The notes under the pieces are model-generated. The model made no database searches. It was not told the origin of the DNA and saw nothing but the letters and a program-made list of their open reading frames with translations. From the NCBI GenBank assembly GCA_012841375.1, contig DUUV01000028.1:563-64562 (forward strand): 64,000 bases of DNA, read 5' to 3'. Positions 3,415 to 14,505 of this stretch are shown piece by piece (position 1 is the stretch's first letter; every line of letters begins with the position of its first letter). The DNA comes from Candidatus Fermentithermobacillaceae bacterium. Its GTDB lineage: Bacteria; Bacillota; Sulfobacillia; Fermentithermobacillales; Fermentithermobacillaceae. The translations under genes were made by a program, and so were the position numbers.

Positions 3415-5301
3415 GTGAAAACCCGAGCAGCCATTTCCGGCGATCTCCGACGGGTCACGGGGCTGATAGAAAGCCCCTTCAAGACATACCTGCAACTGAG
3501 CCTCCTCTTAGTGACTGAATCGCTGGAGCCGGCGTTAGGCGCTTTCGCCTTGAAAGGTCTTCTGGATGCCTTCGTGGCGTTGAATGCTTCTCTTGTTTGG
3601 CGGGCGGCACTTGTCTTCTTTGGAGTAACGGTCTTTGGCGCGCTCATTGGAGGCACGGGCGTTTCGATGCGGGTCCGTCTCGTGGAGGAACTCGCCCGCA
3701 GGCAACGGGAGGCCTTGATGCGCTCCGGGGTCGAGATGCCCCTCCTTCAGTTCGAGAAACTCCCCCGCGGCGACTTGGCATCCAGATTGACATCTGACAT
3801 CACTGTCTCGTCACGAGTCATTACTGAATGCTATCTCCTGGCCAGGGTCGCATTGCGCGCATTCGCTGCGGCGGCGTACATGCTCACCCTGAATTGGCAA
3901 GTCGCCCTGGCTTGCGCCCTCACGGGCCCGGTTACACTGGTCGTCAGCGGAACCATTTCCAGACCTATCAACAAGCGGTCTATGGAGCTCCAGACGGCTA
4001 TCGGCCAAGTCTCGTCCGAAGCCCTCAATACGCTGGAGGGTGTCCAGGCTATCAAGTCCTTCCTGGCAGAGGACTCGGCTGAAAAACGCTTTCTCACAAG
4101 AGCGTCTGCTGTCAGGCTGGCGGCCGTGAGGATGTCCTCGGTGTTCGCGTTGAACGCCGCTTGGATGGGCACAGGTTCCCTCTTGCCATTTGCCGTCACG
4201 TTTGGGTACGGCGGTTACATGGCTGTCCAAGGCAGGCTTACCATCGGAGGGATACTGGCGCTGGTCAGCCTCTGCAACAACCTGGGCTGGCCGTTGGCGG
4301 GCATGGGACGGTCTCTGGCCAACGTTCGAAGGAGTCTCGGGGCTTTCCGCCGTGTCACTGAGATCCTGGACCTTCCGCGGGATGTGGACCCGGTCCCCGC
4401 TGACGGGCATCCTGAGCAGCATGTCATCGAGAGCGAATGGGACCTTCCGCCGGATGCGAACCTGGCCCCGGTTGAAGGGGCAGCGATCACAGAGCGCGCA
4501 GATTCACTGAGTAGAGCCGGAACCACCGACCCGTCCGCCGACGCCATACCAGAACCAGAAGACGCAGGCCTTTCGATAACCGTTCGCGGCCTTTCCTTTG
4601 AGTATATCCAAGGCACCCCTGTTCTGAAGGACATCTCCATTGAGATACCGGCCGGGTCTCTGGTTGTTCTGGCGGGGAAGAGCGGCTGCGGCAAGAGCAC
4701 TCTCATCAAGGTCCTCGCCGGGCTCTACCGCCCGTATCCCGGCACGGTGTTCATCGGAGACCGGGACCTTCACTATGAGGCGAGCTGGGCTCGCACTGTG
4801 ACTCTCTACCTGCCCCAAGAGCCCTTCCTCTTTTCAGGTTCCCTGCGGGAAAATCTTCAGTTGGCCAATGCAGAAGCCACCGAAGCCGAACTGCGACAAG
4901 CATTGTCCATCGCCGACGCCCTGGAGTTTGTTGAGCGGGATGAGGGTGGCCTGGACCGCAAAGTATCCGAGAGGGGGAGCTCATTCTCAGGTGGGGAGAG
5001 GCAGCGTCTATCCATTGCCCGGACGCTTCTCAAGAGAGGCGCGGTGCTGTTGGTCGATGAGCCGACGTCCTCGGTGGACAGAGAGTCCGAGGAGCGGATC
5101 TGGTCCAGTCTCCTCCTGGCAATGAAGGGAAAGACCTGTGTAGTCGCAACTCACCGGTTGGAGATAGCCGCGAGAGCCGACCTTGTTTTTGTGATGGACG
5201 GTGGCCGCATTGTCGAGTATGGAACCCATGCGGATCTTCATATGCCCGGGACCGTCTACAGCAGTCTCGTCGGCGAAACGGGAGGGGTGATGGCCGGATG
5301 A
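3415..5301 (+). CDS. ABC exporter subunit (TMD+NBD, MsbA/multidrug type)
   Basis: Hydrophobic N-terminal domain, Walker A GKSGCGKST, signature FSGGERQR, Walker B LLVDEPT, H-loop ATHR. Confidence 0.92.
   Translation: MKTRAAISGDLRRVTGLIESPFKTYLQLSLLLVTESLEPALGAFALKGLLDAFVALNASLVWRAALVFFGVTVFGALIGGTGVSMRVRLVEELARRQREALMRSGVEMPLLQFEKLPRGDLASRLTSDITVSSRVITECYLLARVALRAFAAAAYMLTLNWQVALACALTGPVTLVVSGTISRPINKRSMELQTAIGQVSSEALNTLEGVQAIKSFLAEDSAEKRFLTRASAVRLAAVRMSSVFALNAAWMGTGSLLPFAVTFGYGGYMAVQGRLTIGGILALVSLCNNLGWPLAGMGRSLANVRRSLGAFRRVTEILDLPRDVDPVPADGHPEQHVIESEWDLPPDANLAPVEGAAITERADSLSRAGTTDPSADAIPEPEDAGLSITVRGLSFEYIQGTPVLKDISIEIPAGSLVVLAGKSGCGKSTLIKVLAGLYRPYPGTVFIGDRDLHYEASWARTVTLYLPQEPFLFSGSLRENLQLANAEATEAELRQALSIADALEFVERDEGGLDRKVSERGSSFSGGERQRLSIARTLLKRGAVLLVDEPTSSVDRESEERIWSSLLLAMKGKTCVVATHRLEIAARADLVFVMDGGRIVEYGTHADLHMPGTVYSSLVGETGGVMAG
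4368..4482 (+). repeat. Degenerate direct repeat with 72-bp period in the TMD-NBD linker
   Basis: ggaccttccgcgggatgtggacccggtcccc at 4368 versus ggaccttccgccggatgcgaacctggcccc at 4440 (DLPRDVDPVP / DLPPDANLAP). Confidence 0.7.
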
Positions 5302-7229
5302 GTCCGAAGCCGAGCGCAAGAAACGACAAAGATGGTGGAGACGACAAAGACGGCAGGAAAGGTAAAATCGAGACAAGCGACAGAGCCCGTGAAGAAGGGG
5401 CTCGGACCGAGCGTTCCCGCGAAAAGCGGCCGGACTCTTGGAGGGATGTCCGGGATATGCTGTCGTTCCTCGGCGCCTACTGGCCCCTCTATATCGTCTG
5501 CATATTCCTTAACATATGCGCCAACCTGGCTTACGGCCCGGGCATAGCCTACTCACTGGCGGTTCTCACTGATTCCATCACCGCCAAAGAGATCTCCCTG
5601 GTGTGGAGAGCGGCTCGACTCCTCGGGCTCATGGCCGCAGCCATGGGTGCCTTGGCGGGCATATCTCACTTCCTGTCTAATTGGACGCTGGAGGCCGTCG
5701 CCCTAAACATCCGGAGGAAGGTAATGTCCAGGGCGCTAAGGGCGAACCTGTCATACTGGCACATCCAGAAGACCGGGGATACCGTATCATTGCTCGTAAA
5801 TGATACAGAGACTGCCAAGCAGGGCCTGAGCCTGCTTCACGGTCTTGTGGGAGATATCGGACTCATTGTGTCGTGCGTGGTGACCCTCATCGCCTGGGGG
5901 CCCGGCACCGCCTTGGCCCTCTTCGTCCTGGCGGCCCTCTGCATGTTTGTGGGAGCCCGTTTCGCCGAGCCGGTCGGGAAGGTGAGCGATGAGTACCAGG
6001 CTGAGACCGCGAATACCACTTCGGCCGCCACGGAGCTCTTGAGCGGGATAGCAGTGGTGAAGTCGCTGAAGGCGGAACCCATCGCCCTTGGGAGGGCTCT
6101 CAGGACTGTCGACCGGCTGTACGGGGTCGCCCGGAAGAGAGGCCGGCTGCTGGGACTTCAATACGGAGCCACCGCCATCACCCAAGGTCTTTCCTCCGTG
6201 GGCGTGCTCATCGTGGCCGCATTCTTGTCTCTACGAGGCCGGATGACCGTGGGGCAGGCCGTAGGCGTCATGCAGCTCGCGTCTCTCCCACTCAACGTGT
6301 TCGGTTCACTCGGCGAGAGCTGGGCGACGATCCAGCAGAACCTGGCGGCCAGCAGGCGGCTCAAGGTTTCCATGGAGATACCGGTTGAGCGGGACGCCGG
6401 AGACGCCCTCGCGGAGGGATCTCCTGACGCCCGTGGCGCCCTTCAACCCGACGCACGCGCTGCGCTTCATCCTGACCCCCGCATGGCGCCTCGACCTGAA
6501 GTTCAGACCGGGCTTCAGCAATCCCATGCCCACACCGCGCTTCACCCGGAGGATACAGACTTCGTGCTTGAGTTCGACTCGGTGACGTTTGGCTATGACC
6601 GGGAGAGGGCCGTCTTGGACGGAGCGTGCTTTCGGATCAGAGAGCGGCAGAAGGCAGCGCTGGTGGGCCCGAGCGGCGGCGGCAAGACATCGGTCTTGAG
6701 GCTCATCCAGGGCTTCTACGAACCGTGGGAAGGTACCATCAAGCTCCGGGGGAAGGATGTTTCGAGCATACCGCTCAAGGAGCTCAGGAGCCAGGTGGGC
6801 ATTGTCCCACAAGAGCCTTTCATCTTCCCGGGGACGGTCCGCGAGAACATCGCCATGGGAAATGAGCAGGCTTCTCTGGACGAGATCATCCGCGCGGCCA
6901 AACTCGCCAATGCCCATGAGTTCATCGCCGGACTGCCCGAAGGGTATGACACGGTGCTGGACGAACGGGGAGGCAACCTCTCCGGAGGACAGAAGCAACG
7001 GATCTGCCTTGCCAGGGCGTTTCTCAAAGACGCCGGTCTGTTGCTCTTAGATGAGCCGACGTCGTCGGTTGACGCCGAGTCCGAGGCCCTTATCCGTCAA
7101 TCGGTGGATGAGTACGCGTCCCGCAAGACGGTGCTGGCTGTGTCCCACACCGAGGGGGTTGTTGAAGGAGCCGGTGTAGTCTTGTCGGTCGCAGACGGCA
7201 AGGTGACCGAGACGCGACGACGAGACTGA
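5298..7229 (+). CDS. ABC exporter subunit (TMD+NBD), probable heterodimer partner of 3415..5301
   Basis: ATGA overlap with the upstream gene, Walker A GPSGGGKT, signature LSGGQKQR, Walker B LLLDEPT. Confidence 0.92.
   Translation: MSPKPSARNDKDGGDDKDGRKGKIETSDRAREEGARTERSREKRPDSWRDVRDMLSFLGAYWPLYIVCIFLNICANLAYGPGIAYSLAVLTDSITAKEISLVWRAARLLGLMAAAMGALAGISHFLSNWTLEAVALNIRRKVMSRALRANLSYWHIQKTGDTVSLLVNDTETAKQGLSLLHGLVGDIGLIVSCVVTLIAWGPGTALALFVLAALCMFVGARFAEPVGKVSDEYQAETANTTSAATELLSGIAVVKSLKAEPIALGRALRTVDRLYGVARKRGRLLGLQYGATAITQGLSSVGVLIVAAFLSLRGRMTVGQAVGVMQLASLPLNVFGSLGESWATIQQNLAASRRLKVSMEIPVERDAGDALAEGSPDARGALQPDARAALHPDPRMAPRPEVQTGLQQSHAHTALHPEDTDFVLEFDSVTFGYDRERAVLDGACFRIRERQKAALVGPSGGGKTSVLRLIQGFYEPWEGTIKLRGKDVSSIPLKELRSQVGIVPQEPFIFPGTVRENIAMGNEQASLDEIIRAAKLANAHEFIAGLPEGYDTVLDERGGNLSGGQKQRICLARAFLKDAGLLLLDEPTSSVDAESEALIRQSVDEYASRKTVLAVSHTEGVVEGAGVVLSVADGKVTETRRRD
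6423..6551 (+). repeat. 24-bp degenerate tandem repeat (8-aa units) in the TMD-NBD linker
   Basis: PDARGALQ / PDARAALH / PDPRMAPR / PEVQTGLQ / QSHAHTALH / PED, with units starting at 6423, 6447, 6471, 6495 and 6519. Confidence 0.75.
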
Positions 7230-7344: not shown

Positions 7345-9678
7345 CTACACGATCGCCCACAGCCCGGAGATGATTCCGGTGATGAAGAGCGTCGCGACCC
7401 AGTCTCTCCACGTGATCGCGAACGAGACCCGGTAAGTCCTGTCGCGGTAGAGCCCGAACGCCCGGCCCTCCATGGAGATCGTGAGGTTGTCCACCTTCTC
7501 CAGAGCCGATATCACCAGGGGCATGACTGTGTACTTGACGTAACGGGGGAGACTCTTTAGGCCGGCGGAGCCCACGTCAATTCCCTTGCTAAGCTGGGCG
7601 TTCCTCACCTGAACCATCTCGTATCCGAAGATCGGGATAAACCTTAAGGCCACAACCAGCATAAAGCCGTACCGGTAGGGGAGTCCTGCCTGCATTAGGG
7701 AGTAGGCCAGGTGGTTCGGGTCGGTGGTGACGACAAAAAGGAAACTGGTGAAGATGACGTTCAGGAACCGAAGGGCCAGGCCAATGCCTCTCACCAATCC
7801 CTGAGACCACACGACCACACTGACCCGGCCCAGAGAAAACAAAGGGATAGGCGTGCCTTGCTTGAAGAAGAACATCTGGGCCAGCAATACGGTGGCGGAA
7901 AACACCGTCAGGACCCTCAGCCTTCTGCGGAAGCGGTCGAACCCGGCACCGCTGAGAGCCGCCCCCAGCACCAGGGAGGCGGACAGCACGGCTTGGCGGG
8001 ATATCCCGGATGCGGAGAAAGCGAGCACGGTGATGAGGACGAGCAAGAAAGCCTTGCACAGCGGGTTCAACGAGTGGAGGAACGAATGGCCCGGCTGAAA
8101 GCCTAACACTCTGGGCGATATACCCGGACGAACACCGGCAGCGTTGTCAGCCGTGCGCCGGGAAGACTTGCTCCCAAGGCGTCCGTCCTCATCGAACTCG
8201 CTCTCGGAGTGGGCAGCGAACGGGGTGAACTCGTGCCTTCCCATCTCCCGGAGCGCTTCAAACGCCCGATCGGTGTCCGCATCGACCGCTACGCATCCGT
8301 CCTGGAGGAAAATGACTCTTGAACACATCGCTTGGACCAGCTCCGGATCATGGCAGACCATAAGGGTCGCCCCGCCTTGCCGGACGTGGGCCGCCAGTTC
8401 CTCCGCAATTGCACTCACCATATCAGGGTCCTGTCCCGTGAACGGTTCGTCCAGGAGCAGGAGCTTCCGGTCGTACACCAGGAGCGACGTCATGTTGAGG
8501 CGCTTCTTTTGCCCCATGCTGAGAGAGAAGGGACTTCTGTCCTCAAGCCCGGCCAGCCCGAACCTCTCCGTTATCTCCTGAAGTCTGCCGGAAGGGCTCT
8601 TTCCCAACCCTTCGGCCGTAAGCATGATCTCGCGGCTGACTGTGCTTTCAGACACCTGGTGATTAGGGTTCTGAAATGAGAGGCCCACAAACCCTGCCCG
8701 TTCCCGGACCGGCGTCCTCACAGCCTCTGCTCCGCCCAACGCGATAGAGCCGCCCGTCGGCTCAATGAGGCCCATGATCGTAGAAAGCAGGGTTGACTTG
8801 CCGCTCCCGTTATCGCCCATGAGAGCCACGATCTCGCCCGGCCGGATCTCGAGTGAGACATCCTGGAGCACTTGCCGCTGTCCGTACCCAGCGCACAGGT
8901 CCCTAATGGATAGAAGCGGCGGTCCCTGGCTTCCGGTCTCGTCTTTCGTCCGGACAATCCTCCCGGCAATCCGCCTGGCCGCCTGAACGAGGGGCCTGCC
9001 TTGCTCCTCGAAGACGTTCCCGTTCTCTACTCGTATCAGTCTGTCTGACAAGCGGGCGAGATGTCTCAGCCGGTGTTCCACGACCATTATCGCTGTGCCC
9101 GTCTTTTTCAGGGCGGATAGCGTGTCCAACACCGCCCGGGTACCTGACGGGTCGAGATTGGCCGTGGGTTCGTCCAAGACGATGACCTTGGGACGGAGGA
9201 CCAAAATGGAGGCTATGGCCACACGCTGCTTCTCACCGCCGGACAGGGAATAGACGTCTCTCTGGGCAAGGTGCTCCGCTCGGCAGGTCTTGAGCGCTTC
9301 CATGACCCTGCCCTCAATCTCCCGGGCAGGGACCTTCAGGTTTTCCAGGCCGAAGGCCACCTCGTCCATCACTGTCAGGGTGCAGAGCTGGGCTTCGGGA
9401 TCCTGGCGCACCATCCCGATGGTGCCCAAGAGTTGAACAGGGGAATGTGAGCGGGTATCCAGACCGCCGATCAAGACTTCGCCCGTCATCTCGCCGGCGA
9501 TGGAGTGGGGGATAAACCCTGCCATGGCCAAGCAAAGGGTGGACTTGCCGCCTCCGCTTGGCCCGGTTACGGTCGTGAACGACCCTTCGGACAGGGAGAG
9601 CGACACCCCCGACAGAGCGTGCCGTGTGCCGCCCCTGTAACGGAAGGACAAGTCCCTTATGTCTACCGCAACGTTCAC
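7345..9678 (-). CDS. Single-chain ECF module: two ATPase domains fused to an EcfT transmembrane domain
   Basis: NBD1 GPSGGGKST / LSGGEKQR / VLDEPT. NBD2 GDNGSGKST / LSMGQKKR / LLDEPF. C-terminal EcfT motifs LHSLNP..K, ALRFIP, NAQLSKG and SMEGRAF. Confidence 0.9.
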   Translation of the reverse strand: MNVAVDIRDLSFRYRGGTRHALSGVSLSLSEGSFTTVTGPSGGGKSTLCLAMAGFIPHSIAGEMTGEVLIGGLDTRSHSPVQLLGTIGMVRQDPEAQLCTLTVMDEVAFGLENLKVPAREIEGRVMEALKTCRAEHLAQRDVYSLSGGEKQRVAIASILVLRPKVIVLDEPTANLDPSGTRAVLDTLSALKKTGTAIMVVEHRLRHLARLSDRLIRVENGNVFEEQGRPLVQAARRIAGRIVRTKDETGSQGPPLLSIRDLCAGYGQRQVLQDVSLEIRPGEIVALMGDNGSGKSTLLSTIMGLIEPTGGSIALGGAEAVRTPVRERAGFVGLSFQNPNHQVSESTVSREIMLTAEGLGKSPSGRLQEITERFGLAGLEDRSPFSLSMGQKKRLNMTSLLVYDRKLLLLDEPFTGQDPDMVSAIAEELAAHVRQGGATLMVCHDPELVQAMCSRVIFLQDGCVAVDADTDRAFEALREMGRHEFTPFAAHSESEFDEDGRLGSKSSRRTADNAAGVRPGISPRVLGFQPGHSFLHSLNPLCKAFLLVLITVLAFSASGISRQAVLSASLVLGAALSGAGFDRFRRRLRVLTVFSATVLLAQMFFFKQGTPIPLFSLGRVSVVVWSQGLVRGIGLALRFLNVIFTSFLFVVTTDPNHLAYSLMQAGLPYRYGFMLVVALRFIPIFGYEMVQVRNAQLSKGIDVGSAGLKSLPRYVKYTVMPLVISALEKVDNLTISMEGRAFGLYRDRTYRVSFAITWRDWVATLFITGIISGLWAIV

Positions 9679-10709
9679 TTCACTACCAACTTGCTGACCT
9701 TCTGCACCCAGTATCCACCTTCGTAGTTTCCGGCAACCAGCCGCAAGGTATCTCCTTCTTCGATGATGATCATCCGGTCATCTGCCATCACGTCGGCAAG
9801 ATCAAAGTCAACCTGATAGCCATCGGATGCCACCACCGTCACGGTCTTTGACCCGGGCTTCGGGCCGGCCTCGCTCAAGATATCAGTGACAAGCACCCCC
9901 GTGTACTCCCTGGGGGCGACATAAGTGACCTGTCCTTTGAGCTCGGCAACTACGGTGACCTTTTCCAGCCTGGAGATGTCCACGGCGAGAGGTTTCTCCA
10001 CGTTGCCCTCCACGCCCAGCGCCGCGCCTTTCCAAGGGGCCTCATAGACATTAGTGAAGTAGTATCCTGCACCCACGGCCAACGCTACAGCCAAGGCCAG
10101 GGTGACATAACGGACTGACTTGGGCGAGGATGGGACCGAGACCGGGGCTTCCTGCATCATGCTGGGACGCACTTGGTGGACCGTTGTGAGCACCGAGTAA
10201 CCGAAGCCGCCGGCAAACAAAGCTCCCGACACCAGCGACAGAAAGGTGATGAACGCCAGGTAGCCCCATGGAGCCCCCGAGAAATACACCAACTGGAACA
10301 CAATGACGTTGGCGGCGGAGGCGATGGCGCCCCCTGTGATATAGGAGAGGACGCTGCGCCTTCTAGTACCCGCAAGCAAGAGGTCGACCACCAAACCCTG
10401 TACCAGTGACACTATGACGATGACAGACCCGTGGGTGCTGCCTGTAAGGAGTTCCACGGTGCCTTTGACCAACCCGCAAAGCGAACCTGCGCCGAAGGAC
10501 CGCACCAGTCCCGCCGCCAGCACTATCCAGAAGACATGGAGCCCGGATACGAACTGGCCCGCCCCGAACGGTACGCCGAGCAAGTTGTTCAGGAGAGTGC
10601 CAAGATAGCCCACATAGGTGCTCATGACCCCTCCCAGCCCGCTCAGGACTGCTATGATCAGGAGGTCTCTGGTGGAAAACCTGTACGGTTTCGCGGGTGC
10701 TGCTCTCAC
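9675..10709 (-). CDS. ECF S-component (YkoE-like) fused through an extra TM helix to an Oxidored_molyb-like (SUOX-fold) domain
   Basis: FSTRDLLIIAVL...GLHVFWIVLAAGLVR..GAG...VELLTG...SLVQGLVVDL fits the S-component pattern. The tail carries YTGV, ASDGY, LRLV and WVQKVSKLVV. GTGA overlaps on both sides. Confidence 0.78.
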   Translation of the reverse strand: MRAAPAKPYRFSTRDLLIIAVLSGLGGVMSTYVGYLGTLLNNLLGVPFGAGQFVSGLHVFWIVLAAGLVRSFGAGSLCGLVKGTVELLTGSTHGSVIVIVSLVQGLVVDLLLAGTRRRSVLSYITGGAIASAANVIVFQLVYFSGAPWGYLAFITFLSLVSGALFAGGFGYSVLTTVHQVRPSMMQEAPVSVPSSPKSVRYVTLALAVALAVGAGYYFTNVYEAPWKGAALGVEGNVEKPLAVDISRLEKVTVVAELKGQVTYVAPREYTGVLVTDILSEAGPKPGSKTVTVVASDGYQVDFDLADVMADDRMIIIEEGDTLRLVAGNYEGGYWVQKVSKLVVK

Positions 10710-12358
10710 CTCGGTCTCACCTCCAGTCTGACCACGTTCTTAACCCATCTGGCGCCGGCCGATTCATATATGCCCCAGCCTTGACCTTCGACTGACGTAC
10801 CGGCGCAATCATCATTGCTGTAGACTCCGTCCGGCGGAAAGAAAGCGATCCTGTAGCCTTCCTGCCAATCGGGCGGCGTCTTTCCATCCGCGCTGAGGGC
10901 CACTATCATGTCACCCTGGATCTCAAGCCATGAGTCGTCGGGGAACACGTTCCGGTACGAGAATTCCTGAGCGTACCCGTCGGACGCGTAAACCACCAGG
11001 GTATCGGACTCTTCCATCCCGCCTACAAGGTCCAGGAGCACTCTCACCGGCACTCCACGATACAGCCTCTCGGCGCTCAGGTTCTCATAGCGGTTTTGAT
11101 ACTTGACCTTTGCTTCCCGCGTTTCGAGTCCCGAAAGCTCTTCCAGTGAGAGGAGCATCTCTCCGCCTTTGCCGCTGAGCACCAGATCATCGCTTGCGTA
11201 ACCGGCAGGCTTCTCGACAGGGGTGACCGTTATCCCGGCGGGTGTGGCCTCTACCACGGCAAAGTGATGGAAGCCGCCATCCTGGGGAGAGGCGTAGAGA
11301 CCAGCGCCGCCTCCACCGCTGGTAACGAACGTCACGCCTTCGACTGCGTTCTGGCTGAACATGTGGACGTGGCCGTTGAAGACGGCTTTGACCACGTTCT
11401 CAGGGTCGGTCAACACATCCAAAAGGGAAGCGGCCTCAACCTGGTCCAAGAAGCAGTGGTCTTCGCCCCGGGGGTCAAAGGGCGGCACGTGCATGAACAC
11501 GAGCTTGGGTGACCCCGACGCCCCCAGCGTCTCACGAAGCCAGGAAAGCCCCTCGGGACCGAGTCCCAGGGAGGAGGTATCCAGGAAAACCACTCTCCAT
11601 CCCGCGTAGTCAAAGTAGCGGTTGGGCTGACCAAATCTCGCCTGAAAGAGATCACTGTCAGAATCCCTGACATCGTGGTTTCCCGGAACCGCGAAGCACG
11701 GGACGCCAAGAGCCGAGAGCGCCTCATCGAACGCCTCGAACTCCCGCGAAGCGCCCGATGGGGTCATATCGCCCAGGTGCACAAGGAATTCCGCTTCGGA
11801 TTCGTTGATCAGTGGGACCATACTGCTAAAAACATTGTTTCGTCCCTGGGTGTCGCCTATGACCGCGAAGCGCAGCGGCTCTGTCTCTTGAGGCGTGGTT
11901 TCAAGGATGATCCTCCCGGAGCCCCTTTTCACCAAAACTTCCATGGAGGTGGGGGAGAGCCTCTTGGTTTCGATCACGGGCTCCGCGCCGGGTCGGTTCG
12001 AGCCTGCCTCAGGGCCATGAACCTCTATCGAGACAGCATCCGCCCTGATGTTCAATACCGATATGGTGAACGTCCGCCTGTCCGACGGGTCTCTCTCCAG
12101 ATCGACGCGAAGCGTCGTGGACAGCGCCTTCACAACGGCACTATCACGGGTCACACTTTGGGCCAAGCCTCCTGTCACGGACAGTTTGGGATCGGGGAGA
12201 TCCTTGCAGCCCGAGAGGCCGGCGGCCAAGACAAGGATAGCCAGGACCGTCCAAGCCGCCACCAGGGGCTGCGCCCCGTAGAACCGCCTGAAAGGACTCA
12301 AGCGAGTCCGGCGAGGTCTCACGGCTCGCGCCCGCGATGCTTTGGGAAAGATGGTCAT
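10706..12358 (-). CDS. Lipoprotein: calcineurin-like metallophosphoesterase fused to a C-terminal Oxidored_molyb-like domain
   Basis: Lipobox LSGC. Phosphoesterase motifs GDTQG, HLGD, GNHD, FMH and GHVH. C-terminal YRGVPV, ASDGY, YRIAF and WVKNVVRLEV. Confidence 0.82.
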   Translation of the reverse strand: MTIFPKASRARAVRPRRTRLSPFRRFYGAQPLVAAWTVLAILVLAAGLSGCKDLPDPKLSVTGGLAQSVTRDSAVVKALSTTLRVDLERDPSDRRTFTISVLNIRADAVSIEVHGPEAGSNRPGAEPVIETKRLSPTSMEVLVKRGSGRIILETTPQETEPLRFAVIGDTQGRNNVFSSMVPLINESEAEFLVHLGDMTPSGASREFEAFDEALSALGVPCFAVPGNHDVRDSDSDLFQARFGQPNRYFDYAGWRVVFLDTSSLGLGPEGLSWLRETLGASGSPKLVFMHVPPFDPRGEDHCFLDQVEAASLLDVLTDPENVVKAVFNGHVHMFSQNAVEGVTFVTSGGGGAGLYASPQDGGFHHFAVVEATPAGITVTPVEKPAGYASDDLVLSGKGGEMLLSLEELSGLETREAKVKYQNRYENLSAERLYRGVPVRVLLDLVGGMEESDTLVVYASDGYAQEFSYRNVFPDDSWLEIQGDMIVALSADGKTPPDWQEGYRIAFFPPDGVYSNDDCAGTSVEGQGWGIYESAGARWVKNVVRLEVRPR

Positions 12359-12448: not shown

Positions 12449-13465
12449 TTATTCCGGCAGGTTCACCAGTCTGATCTCGGCAATCTGCTTAACCCCGTGC
12501 TTCTTGCTGGGCAAGCCGGAACCGACCAATCTGAGGGGGCCTTCATCCTCGCCCAGAGGTTTCCCGTCGACTTTGTAGGCAACGATGATGTCCGCGTTGT
12601 AGGCAACCTCCTGGGAAGTGAATTCGACAGTCATGCCGTCTGCCGCGACCACCTCAATGGTGTAGCCCTTGTCTGCCAGACCTTTGTTGAAGAGGTAATG
12701 CCCTCCTTCGGCATCGCCACCGTCGAACATGGATATGACGAGCCAGAGGGGCACCCCCTCATAGACGATAGCGTCGCCTTCTTTGGTCGTCGTCTCAAAT
12801 GTCGCGGCAGGATGGGGAGTATCGGGGCATTCGGCCATGCTTTCGAAGCTCGAGCGGTCCAGCCCAACCGACTCCACTCCGGTCAGGGCGATCTCCCAAT
12901 CCGACAGCCCCTCAACCACAGTCAACTCGGCGACGGACTTTACCCAGAAGTGTCCGTCAGAGACGGCTCCATCGGGCGAAGAGAACCCGAGCCTGGGAAG
13001 CTCGGACGAGAATAGATCGCCGTCGCTGGATGTGATCAACATGGTGTCGAGGTCTGTCACCTTGAGGGCCTGGCCGTCTTCACCGTAGACCATGAGAAGT
13101 CCCTTGACCTGCTCATATGTGAGGGTCATCGTGTAGCCGTCGGATGCGGTGACGGCCAGAGCGTCGTCCTCGGTGAAGCCGCCTGCCTTCTCAAGGACTT
13201 CGTCGATGCTTACGCCCGAGAACGTGTCGGGACCGACAATGGTGCCCGTGGTCTTTATGAAACCACCTTTGCCGTCTTTAACCTCAAGAGAAGAAAGGTC
13301 GATTTCGTGGGAAGTACCGTCCCTGGCGACAACCCGAACAGAGTAGGACGGCGATGCCGGGGGATCGGGCGGCGTGGGATTGGCCTCACCGCAGGCCGCC
13401 AGAAGAACCATGGACAACACGAGGGCTAAGCCCAAGAAAACCGGTGTTCTTCGCTTCAAGCTCAC
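12449..13465 (-). CDS. Lipoprotein with two tandem Oxidored_molyb-like (SUOX-fold) domains
   Basis: GGAGG RBS before GTG 13465 and lipobox LAAC. Domain 1: FSGV, ASDGY, PRLG, WVKSVAEL. Domain 2: YEGVPL, AADG, GPLRLV, GVKQIAEI. Confidence 0.8.
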   Translation of the reverse strand: MSLKRRTPVFLGLALVLSMVLLAACGEANPTPPDPPASPSYSVRVVARDGTSHEIDLSSLEVKDGKGGFIKTTGTIVGPDTFSGVSIDEVLEKAGGFTEDDALAVTASDGYTMTLTYEQVKGLLMVYGEDGQALKVTDLDTMLITSSDGDLFSSELPRLGFSSPDGAVSDGHFWVKSVAELTVVEGLSDWEIALTGVESVGLDRSSFESMAECPDTPHPAATFETTTKEGDAIVYEGVPLWLVISMFDGGDAEGGHYLFNKGLADKGYTIEVVAADGMTVEFTSQEVAYNADIIVAYKVDGKPLGEDEGPLRLVGSGLPSKKHGVKQIAEIRLVNLPE

Positions 13466-13534
13466 ATACACCTCCGTGTGAAAGTAACCGATCTTTGATA
13501 GGAGCATGGGGCCATTGTGTAGTAGCCGGTAGGG

Positions 13535-13564
13535 TCATCCATACGGAGGCACACCAATACGCAT
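13535..13564 (-). other. Possible 9-codon leader ORF (MRIGVPPYG*) behind the riboswitch Shine-Dalgarno
   Basis: GGAAAGGAG-tggttcaa-ATG CGT ATT GGT GTG CCT CCG TAT GGA TGA on the minus strand. Confidence 0.35.
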
Positions 13565-13571
13565 TTGAACC

Positions 13572-13667
13572 ACTCCTTTCCAAATACGGGAGGCCCAGGC
13601 GTTTCCGCCAAGACCCTATCGGCCGCCCCGCCGTGGCCCTACTGCTTTAGGCAAGACGGCTCGGAGT
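13572..13667 (-). ncRNA. Moco/Tuco riboswitch (Moco RNA motif), P3-less variant
   Basis: ACUCCGA-GCCGUCUUGC-CUAA..-GCGGGGCGGC-CGAU-AGGGU..GGCG GAAA CGCC..GCCUCCCGUAUUUGGAAAGGAGU. P1 ACUCC/GGAGU, a fully paired 10-bp P2, a GNRA-capped P4, and the hallmark CCUCCCGUAUUUGGAAAGG 3' tract. Confidence 0.88.
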
Positions 13668-13803
13668 CGCGCCTCATTGTTTCGACACCGGGAGCGCGAA
13701 ATCCTTCGGAGGAAAGCGGGTTCATGCTGTGCAGCGTACCGGTGATTACCGTCATGTAGCAGGGCTGTATTAGCCGTTCGCCCCGCCGGCCTCCGCCCAA
13801 ACT

Positions 13804-14307
13804 CTAGGGAGCGCCGTCGTCTCCGTGTAACCCAGGGAACGCTCCCGCGCGGTACCTGCCATCCTCTCTCAAGATGCTGAGAAGAGCTTTCTCGGCGTCG
13901 CTCAGTGTCAGGCAGTCTTCGGGAAGGGGGAGGAGCTCGGGGATCTCCAACACCTCTTCGCCGTCCCGGGTCGCCTTGCGCGCGAGGCCCAAGTCAACCA
14001 GCAGTTTGACTATTCCCCGGAGGCTCTTCCGGTACGGTTTCCCGTACTCTTCGGCGAACCGCCGTTCCACGTCCTCTTTGGCGCAAGCCTGTCTCGGGTC
14101 GGGTGTGTAGTTCTTGGCCTCGGCGTGCCACCTTTCGAGCCATTTCCACATTTCCTCCCCCTTGCAGCCCGACCAGCCCAGAATGGCAATGGATGTGAAG
14201 GTCACCCCGGCTTCGGCCGGAAGGTGCCGGTGCCACCCGAGCCCAAGAAATTGGCGCACTTGGGGCAAAGACGTCCACATGGTAGCGTTTTTCTCCTCTT
14301 CGTACAT
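13804..14307 (-). CDS. Hypothetical protein (weak resemblance to DUF6042 or winged-helix proteins)
   Basis: GAGGTG RBS before ATG 14307. Contains GWHRHLP, LVDLGL and IPELLPLPEDCL. Confidence 0.55.
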   Translation of the reverse strand: MYEEEKNATMWTSLPQVRQFLGLGWHRHLPAEAGVTFTSIAILGWSGCKGEEMWKWLERWHAEAKNYTPDPRQACAKEDVERRFAEEYGKPYRKSLRGIVKLLVDLGLARKATRDGEEVLEIPELLPLPEDCLTLSDAEKALLSILREDGRYRAGAFPGLHGDDGAP

Positions 14308-14505
14308 CCTGATCACCTCAGAGGACCCGTTCGCCGCACCCAATGGGAATTCCTGCCAATTAAGACAGAAAGTTGTCGGGGAAGCTGTCTTTTCGCGGTG
14401 CCGTGGACTTACGCAGGACTGAGCCCGGTCCGGTCAGAATCCATCCTTGGATGCGGGAGGCCATCTTCCTCTGAGTGCGCATAACGTCTAGTAGGCATCT
14501 CTTAA

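Follow-up and report, generated by a model that had tools for sequence, protein, structure and literature searches.

A riboswitch-linked ECF importer with a SUOX-like domain fused to its S-component is a candidate uptake system for the molybdopterin-type cofactor in anaerobic bacteria and archaea

We describe a four-gene operon on the minus strand of a 64,000-nucleotide stretch of DNA (hereafter the window) from a Candidatus Fermentithermobacillaceae bacterium (assembly GCA_012841375.1, contig DUUV01000028.1, positions 563 to 64,562 of the forward strand). The third gene encodes a protein of 344 amino acids (aa), here called the S fusion, in which the S-component of an energy-coupling factor (ECF) transporter is followed by a linker, a seventh transmembrane (TM) helix and a domain of the SUOX (sulfite oxidase) fold. 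Our data demonstrate that the system is a real, conserved variant of a group I ECF importer, similar to YkoEDC and equipped with a dedicated energising module. A riboswitch for the molybdenum or tungsten cofactor (Moco, Tuco) forms the operon leader, and the operon, as predicted from sequence and models, is a strong candidate for a system by which microbes take this cofactor up. The S fusion gene and its parts are arranged as follows.

9675 to 10709, minus strand: S fusion gene, 344 aa, third of the four operon genes
10170 to 10709, minus strand: S-component core, residues 1-180, six TM helices of the YkoE type (PF09819, match to 5EDL, AlphaFold2 helices)
10122 to 10169, minus strand: cytoplasmic linker, residues 181-196, a disordered stretch with many Pro, Ser and basic residues (model confidence, counts of Lys and Arg)
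10047 to 10121, minus strand: seventh TM helix (TM7), residues 197-221, an anchor that leads the chain outward (AlphaFold2, positive-inside statistics)
9678 to 10046, minus strand: extracytoplasmic minimal SUOX-fold domain, residues 222-344, no cysteine (PF00174, fold matches)

The S fusion gene starts at a GTG that shares bases with the TGA stop of the gene before it (GTGA), and the TGA stop of the S fusion gene in turn overlaps the GTG start of the gene at 7345 to 9678. Such overlaps on either side are the usual sign of translational coupling.

The N-terminal part is an ECF S-component, as a sequence-only reading of this DNA had proposed. The Pfam family PF09819 (YkoE-type S component) matches residues 14-131 with 65 bits against a cut-off of 25.2, and the family profile matches YkoE (5EDL) with an E value of 6.2e-15 and the SUOX-family protein SoxC with 2.7e-6. 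An AlphaFold2 (AF2) model built on 56 homologues, with a predicted local distance difference test score (pLDDT) of 82, places the core helices at residues 13-44, 56-69, 74-88, 96-114, 120-142 and 148-180. Foldseek aligned this core to YkoE 5EDL (TM-score normalised to the target 0.73, 27% identity) and also paired it with RibU and 4HZU_S. The YkoE-like core that had been postulated is present, at about 180 aa rather than about 175 aa.

Beyond the core, pLDDT falls below 50 at residues 183-191 of the linker; the model then shows a helix at 197-221 and, at 230-343, a domain rich in beta structure. The strings that the sequence-only reading quoted for the linker and the hydrophobic helix, EAPVSVPSSPKSVR and YVTLALAVALAVGAGYYF, are found exactly in the 344-aa open reading frame, and a GA(V)YYF motif is kept in the seventh helix region of the homologues. 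PF00174 (Oxidored_molyb) matches residues 231-342 with 28.4 bits (cut-off 24), and the tail of the full model was matched by Foldseek to SoxC, SorA, YedY, nitrate reductase and the PruR pterin-binding proteins. The proposal of an extra helix and a fused SUOX-like domain is thus borne out by the AF2 model, by PF00174 and by conservation across phyla and domains of life.

Positive-inside statistics over 56 sequences gave mean counts of Lys plus Arg of 3.3 at the N-terminus, 1.8 in loop 2-3, 2.1 in loop 4-5 and 4.4 in the TM6-TM7 linker, all predicted to be cytoplasmic, against 0.0, 0.0 and 0.1 in the alternate, outside loops. This pattern places the N-terminus inside, leaves the six-helix core with its C-terminus inside and lets TM7 lead the domain out. 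The same domain is carried by two further proteins of the operon, a lipoprotein and a phosphoesterase, and there it is also extracytoplasmic because of their lipoboxes, LLAAC and LSGC. Both lines of evidence agree with the outside location that had been suggested. The TM6-TM7 linker ranges from 12 to 51 aa across the 56 homologues, and all other loops are of near-fixed length. It is an established feature of the ECF mechanism that the S-component topples against EcfT (PMC7755397). Judging from the model, it is plausible that the disordered, length-variable linker lets the core topple while TM7 and the domain stay upright.

The fusion is genuine. Among the best 120 of 322 homologous protein clusters, lengths are 334-391 aa, identities 50-88% and query coverage at least 97%, and most of these 120 contain both Pfam domains. 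The fused gene is present in 206 GTDB species genomes from anaerobic Bacillota, Bipolaricaulota and Archaea. The bacterial carriers include Syntrophomonadaceae, Dethiobacteria, Pelotomaculum, Anoxynatronum, Thermovorax and Bipolaricaulota, and among the archaeal carriers are Thermoplasmata, other Methanobacteriota and one Promethearchaeota (Asgard) genome. Full-length copies in no fewer than 120 clusters and in the genomes of 206 species, spread over several phyla and over both bacteria and archaea, rule out a sequencing or assembly error, one of the outcomes that would have undone the sequence-only reading. A search with the core only found a few close relatives of 200-211 aa. Naturally split close homologues were also sought, and both short ones inspected (L093 and L094) are broken copies of the fused gene; L094 has a frameshift on a contig with 1.2x coverage. 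The metagenomic copy at L093:6001-7068 has an in-frame stop exactly within the TM6-TM7 linker; this may be an error, or else the gene may be naturally divided there into an S core and a domain with an anchor of its own.

A model of the SUOX-like domain alone reached a pLDDT of 89 and a pTM (predicted template-modelling score) of 0.82. All 21 of its Foldseek matches at E <=0.001 are SUOX-family or PruR structures, with TM-scores normalised to the query of 0.79-0.83 for the SUOX Moco domains and 0.63-0.73 for PruR 7KOS, 7KOU, 7KOM and 7RKB (E 1e-4 to 5e-4). The best fold matches, with significant homology, are the SUOX-family proteins SoxC (2XTS), SorA (2BLF) and YedY/MsrP (1XDQ), and the domain profile finds SoxC at E 5e-8 and SorA at E 2.5e-7. 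No other Pfam domain was found on this part of the protein, and no PF00174 protein outside this operon was found in the genome.

The domain cannot be a SUOX enzyme. No cysteine occurs in the window's domain and the family alignment has no conserved Cys column; in a low-confidence hhalign alignment (probability 21%), the Mo-ligand Cys of E. coli MsrP falls opposite L257 of an Ala-Glu-Leu (AEL) motif, which sits in a shortened hairpin. The lack of a conserved Cys, a Leu at the Mo-ligand position and the shortened hairpin exclude catalysis of the SUOX type, and an active SUOX enzyme was likewise rejected on account of the missing Cys and the truncation to about 120 aa. The domain further differs from SUOX enzymes in having no dimerisation domain or redox partner. 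Invariant positions are A-E-L-x-G, D-G-Y (D296-G-Y298), R323 and W334, the last within a C-terminal GGYWV motif. D-G-Y aligns with N-D-Y of Vibrio PruR 7KOM in a weak phmmer alignment (E 0.9); in PruR, the pterin is held by a Tyr on one side and a Trp on the other and is hydrogen-bonded by an Asn (N102-x-Y104, W160; PMC11194511).

PruR resembles the domain in being a small, secreted, non-enzymatic protein with a truncated SUOX fold and no Mo-ligand Cys (PMC11194511) and, going by the weak phmmer alignment, in an N/D-x-Y motif at the pterin site. At the SUOX Cys position, PruR has Pro-Trp whereas the S fusion domain, in the low-confidence hhalign alignment, has the invariant Ala-Glu-Leu. PruR is soluble, has DcpA as its partner in cyclic di-GMP (c-di-GMP) signalling, binds monapterin-type pterins and belongs to Proteobacteria (PMC11194511), whereas the S fusion domain is membrane-tethered, fused to a transporter and under the control of a Moco riboswitch. 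The four copies of the domain in the operon represent a subtype each: S fusion, phosphoesterase, lipoprotein d1 and lipoprotein d2. All of these subtypes recur in both Bacillota and Archaea with conserved sequence; what the four have in common is limited to D-G and a few further positions.

The remaining elements of the operon are listed below.

13557 to 13678, minus strand: Moco/Tuco riboswitch aptamer, P3-less variant, operon leader (RF01055, 79.5 bits, gathering score 36)
12449 to 13507, minus strand: first gene, lipoprotein with two Cys-less SUOX-like domains, d1 and d2 (PF00174, 39 bits; lipobox LLAAC)
10706 to 12358, minus strand: second gene, surface metallophosphoesterase with lipobox LSGC and a C-terminal SUOX-like domain (PF00149, 58.6 bits, residues 162-333)
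7345 to 9678, minus strand: fourth gene, EcfA-EcfA'-EcfT triple fusion of 777 aa, the energising module (two ABC_tran domains and CbiQ)

The energising module matches CbiQ PF02361 with 98.7 bits and the ECF_ATPase models with E values of 1e-92 to 1e-95. The C-terminal domain of the phosphoesterase aligns with that of the S fusion, and its gene is conserved beside the S gene in most loci. In a comparison of 80 loci, archaeal ones included, the set of lipoprotein, phosphoesterase, S fusion and A-A'-T genes surrounds the S gene in most, from Bacillota to Thermoplasmata, and the A-A'-T gene comes after the S gene in nearly all. The listed ATG start of the lipoprotein gene is at 13507; a GTG at 13465, with a ribosome-binding site (GGAGG) 5 nucleotides upstream, gives the lipoprotein signal MSLKRRTPVF...LLAAC, and this GTG, 14 codons downstream of the listed start, is probably the true one.

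The P3 hairpin of the riboswitch is deleted in the Rfam alignment. RF01055 is the single RNA family found in the 64-kb window, and the aptamer is present in a single copy in the 2.37-Mb genome. P3-less Moco RNAs track tungsten-cofactor metabolism (Regulski et al., PMC2408646). We surveyed the bacterial loci with at least 4.3 kb of flank (n=41) using a covariance model made from eight aptamers: 22 of the 41 have a riboswitch upstream in the same orientation, three of them directly before the S gene. The same model found no riboswitch at the archaeal loci. In several loci (L009/L012 at 11254, L029 at 10270, L033 at 9513, L038 at 9480, L039 at 9814 and L040 at 10260), the ECF operon is closely followed by a second Moco-type riboswitch, and in L029, L039 and L040 it precedes more SUOX-like domain proteins. 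Therefore, receptors and transporter can be separate units, each with its own riboswitch.

The public annotation invites another interpretation, in which the core carries thiamine or hydroxymethylpyrimidine (HMP) and the domain serves as a surface sensor or as a redox or chaperone module. Homologues in the JGI database are named 'thiamin/hydroxymethylpyrimidine transport permease', the core shares the 27% identity with YkoE given above, and PruR is itself a signalling protein (PMC11194511). However, the only riboswitch in the window is of the Moco type, and a thiamine/HMP transporter was rejected because no thiamine pyrophosphate (TPP) riboswitch is present there; the L1-loop motif FGAGQFxxGLH, invariant in the S fusion family, differs from the YkoE sequence. 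A sensory role is countered by the absence of a DcpA-like GGDEF/EAL or sensor-kinase partner among the neighbouring genes and by the fact that the domain is always co-encoded with the transporter. We regard this interpretation as very improbable.

The carriers use tungsten- or molybdenum-pterin enzymes. Tungsten-pterin enzymes of the aldehyde ferredoxin oxidoreductase (AOR) family (PF02730) were found in 49 of a set of 50 carrier genomes. In an even sample of 201 genomes of the phylum (12 carriers and 189 non-carriers), AOR is present in 11 of the 12 carriers versus 108 of the 189 non-carriers (one-sided Fisher p = 0.015). In the AOR-less carrier of this sample, the S gene is split by a TAG or a frameshift (G129:C1:599551-600628), a state that fits decay of the transporter after loss of the cofactor-dependent enzymes. 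The window's genome, which is 97.8% complete, encodes three AORs, the formate dehydrogenase FdhA (TIGR01591, 912 bits) and a MobA-FdhD fusion adjoining FdhA. On its contig C20:216-4356 (L090), a Cys-type FdhA with no in-frame TGA is followed by this 459-aa protein, with MobA N-terminal and FdhD C-terminal, an unusual fusion of two late maturation steps in a genome without the early ones. In the Syntrophomonas, Pelotomaculum and Dethiobacteria carriers, most formate-dehydrogenase-like PF00384 genes have a single in-frame TGA, probably a selenocysteine codon; the window's FdhA and the archaeal ones have no such TGA.

Many of these genomes lack genes needed to make the cofactor. Hidden Markov model (HMM) searches of the window's genome found no MoaC, MoeA or MoaE, and tblastn with the E. 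coli proteins found no MoaB, MoaC, MoaD, MoaE, MoeA, Mog or ModA. MoaA gave two weak partial tblastn matches (26-29% identity over 139-173 aa), which look like generic radical-SAM matches. No TupA-type binding protein is present in this genome, where the sole PF12849 (TupA/PstS-type) protein is PstS. ModB-like tblastn matches, considered as a hidden molybdate transporter, proved to be PotABCD and PstSCAB. In all, 21 of the 50 carriers, the window's genome among them, are without both MoaC and MoeA, and 20 of these 21 have AOR. They include two closed archaeal chromosomes, CP070736 and CP070748. Within this group, a MobA-like gene is found in all 11 genomes with a strong PF00384 match, indicative of an enzyme with bis-molybdopterin guanine dinucleotide (bis-MGD), and MobA is mostly missing where no bis-MGD enzyme is present. 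The MoaE HMM was given little weight, being insensitive in these lineages (weak matches in 12 of the 50 genomes). In the carriers without MoaC and MoeA, the cofactor is used and its last maturation steps are kept, with neither synthesis of molybdopterin (MPT) nor metal insertion, which argues for import of a metal-loaded pterin rather than of tungstate or an early precursor.

In an alternative reading, the operon is an ECF-type importer of the oxyanions tungstate or molybdate. The oxyanion would be the ligand of the SUOX-like domains, and metal supply would be under riboswitch control as in the tup, wtp and mod operons. P3-less Moco RNAs often precede tungstate/molybdate transporters (PMC2408646). 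The strong association with tungsten AOR enzymes fits this, and, with no ModA- or TupA-type protein in the window's genome, no other route for the metal is visible. It nevertheless appears a quite unlikely explanation. The 21 carriers without MoaC and the metal insertase MoeA could not use free metal; without MoeA, neither imported tungstate nor metal-free MPT has a known route into the cofactor. Moreover, the S core belongs to a family (YkoE) that binds an organic heterocycle, the fold of the domain is that of a pterin site whose metal-ligating Cys is lost, and it is not obvious what a surface phosphoesterase would do in the uptake of oxyanions.

The imported compound could also be a precursor or breakdown product, such as cyclic pyranopterin monophosphate (cPMP), molybdopterin in a metal-free or dephospho form, or a different pterin that reduces the need for Moco synthesis. 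PruR-type domains take small pterins as ligands (PMC11194511), the surface phosphoesterase suggests processing ahead of import, and over half of the carriers have retained MoaC and MoeA, with which a precursor could be completed. On the other hand, neither cPMP nor metal-free MPT could be converted by those carriers in which MoaC, MoeA and detectable MoaE are all missing, the operon encodes no kinase that would re-phosphorylate a dephospho form, and a riboswitch for the finished cofactor best fits salvage of the end product. We consider import of a precursor unlikely.

We consider it probable that the system is an ECF importer that takes up a molybdopterin-type cofactor and uses the fused domain as a tethered receptor for the last step. 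The cargo would most likely be Tuco/Moco, that is, metal-loaded molybdopterin, or a very close derivative. A tethered capture domain that hands its substrate to the core, as suggested in the sequence-only reading, is compatible with this evidence.

Several points weigh against cofactor import. Moco is chemically labile outside proteins, and there is no established way to assemble tungsten-bis-MPT in the absence of MoeA. MoaC is present in 11 of the 12 carriers of the phylum sample, and an enrichment of the system in AOR-positive, MoaC-negative genomes was sought and not found, as only 1 of 15 such genomes has it. The other fourteen (G057, G089, G115, G126, G150, G155, G157, G161, G174, G195, G198, G226, G231 and G243) either have another route of cofactor uptake or have replaced MoaC. 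With 11 of 12 carriers having MoaC and 14 of these 15 genomes without the system, it is neither specific to auxotrophs nor the sole route; there must be others. The majority of the carrier genomes were assembled from metagenomes, and some absences may therefore reflect incompleteness. In 19 of the 41 bacterial loci, the covariance model found no riboswitch within the flank. The alignments that link the domain to PruR (E 0.9) and to MsrP (probability 21%) are weak. The hairpin of the modelled domain is even shorter than that of PruR, and the fit of a whole cofactor is unproven; PruR itself takes small, non-Moco pterins in a shortened cleft (PMC11194511).

The operon may work as follows. When the cofactor is scarce inside the cell, the P3-less riboswitch would permit expression of the four genes. 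At the surface, the cofactor would be captured by the two-domain lipoprotein and by the phosphoesterase lipoprotein with its third domain, and the phosphoesterase may trim it, for example from a dinucleotide to a mononucleotide form. The fourth copy of the domain, tethered via the seventh helix, would then receive the pterin and deliver it to the pocket of the six-helix core. The core would topple against the fused EcfA-A'-T module, driven by ATP, with the long disordered TM6-TM7 linker keeping TM7 and the domain in place. Inside, the imported cofactor would be used by MobA-FdhD and by the apo-enzymes FdhA and the three AORs.

Compared with known systems, the closest relative is YkoEDC (ThiUVW) of B. 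subtilis, which shares the PF09819 family, the six-helix fold, membership of group I and a riboswitch-controlled operon. YkoEDC also has a dedicated ATPase and T module with fused A-A'; here, T is fused to A-A' as well. YkoE, in contrast, ends after helix 6, without TM7, an outside domain or surface partner proteins, and YkoEDC binds thiamine/HMP under a TPP riboswitch rather than a Moco riboswitch. Among group I metal ECF transporters, CbiMNQO and NikMNQO have a seven-helix S unit or outward-facing accessories (CbiN, NikN, NikK and NikL), which are sometimes fused. The extra helix of CbiM is N-terminal, and CbiN, a small loop protein, does not represent a ligand-binding domain with the fold of a known cofactor binder. 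Tethered extracytoplasmic capture domains fused to a membrane subunit also occur in the type I ABC transporters OpuA and GlnPQ (van der Heide and Poolman 2002, cited in PMC7755397). These are importers of the type that depends on substrate-binding proteins (SBPs) and have the periplasmic-binding-protein fold, unlike the SUOX-like fold found here. By definition, ECF (type III) transporters do without SBPs (PMC7755397). The S fusion departs from this family in having both a fused outside domain and two surface proteins with the same domain.

The genes flanking the operon are unrelated to it. Two adjacent half-size ABC exporters (ABC_membrane and ABC_tran) at 3415 to 7229 on the plus strand converge on the end of the operon; they probably form a heterodimer, and no link to the ECF operon is evident. 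A DUF6042 protein is encoded at 13804 to 14343 on the minus strand, immediately upstream of the riboswitch and outside the regulated unit.

To our knowledge, no bacterial or archaeal transporter for Moco or Tuco has been described, and prokaryotes, as far as we know, are generally assumed to make the cofactor themselves. In the literature that we searched, mainly open-access papers and preprints, no ECF or other bacterial or archaeal Moco importer and no such fused S-component is described. The chances seem evenly balanced that this is the first known prokaryotic uptake system for a finished tungsten/molybdenum pterin cofactor, one in which tethered and free receptor domains have been recruited to an ECF transporter and which serves anaerobes without the pathway.

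The public annotation of the S fusion family, either 'thiamin/HMP permease' or 'molybdopterin-dependent oxidoreductase', is misleading. The textbook split between ECF transporters and SBP-dependent ABC importers is called into question by an S-component that carries a receptor domain on a tether, and the S fusion offers a natural system for studying how toppling copes with an extra anchor. If our interpretation is true, ECF transporters can recruit tethered and free extracytoplasmic receptor domains, and anaerobic bacteria and archaea without a molybdopterin pathway would run AOR and formate dehydrogenase on scavenged cofactor. With their cofactor enzymes and MobA but no MoaC or MoeA, the 97.8%-complete genome and the two closed archaeal chromosomes make cross-feeding of the cofactor in anoxic communities a concrete and testable idea.

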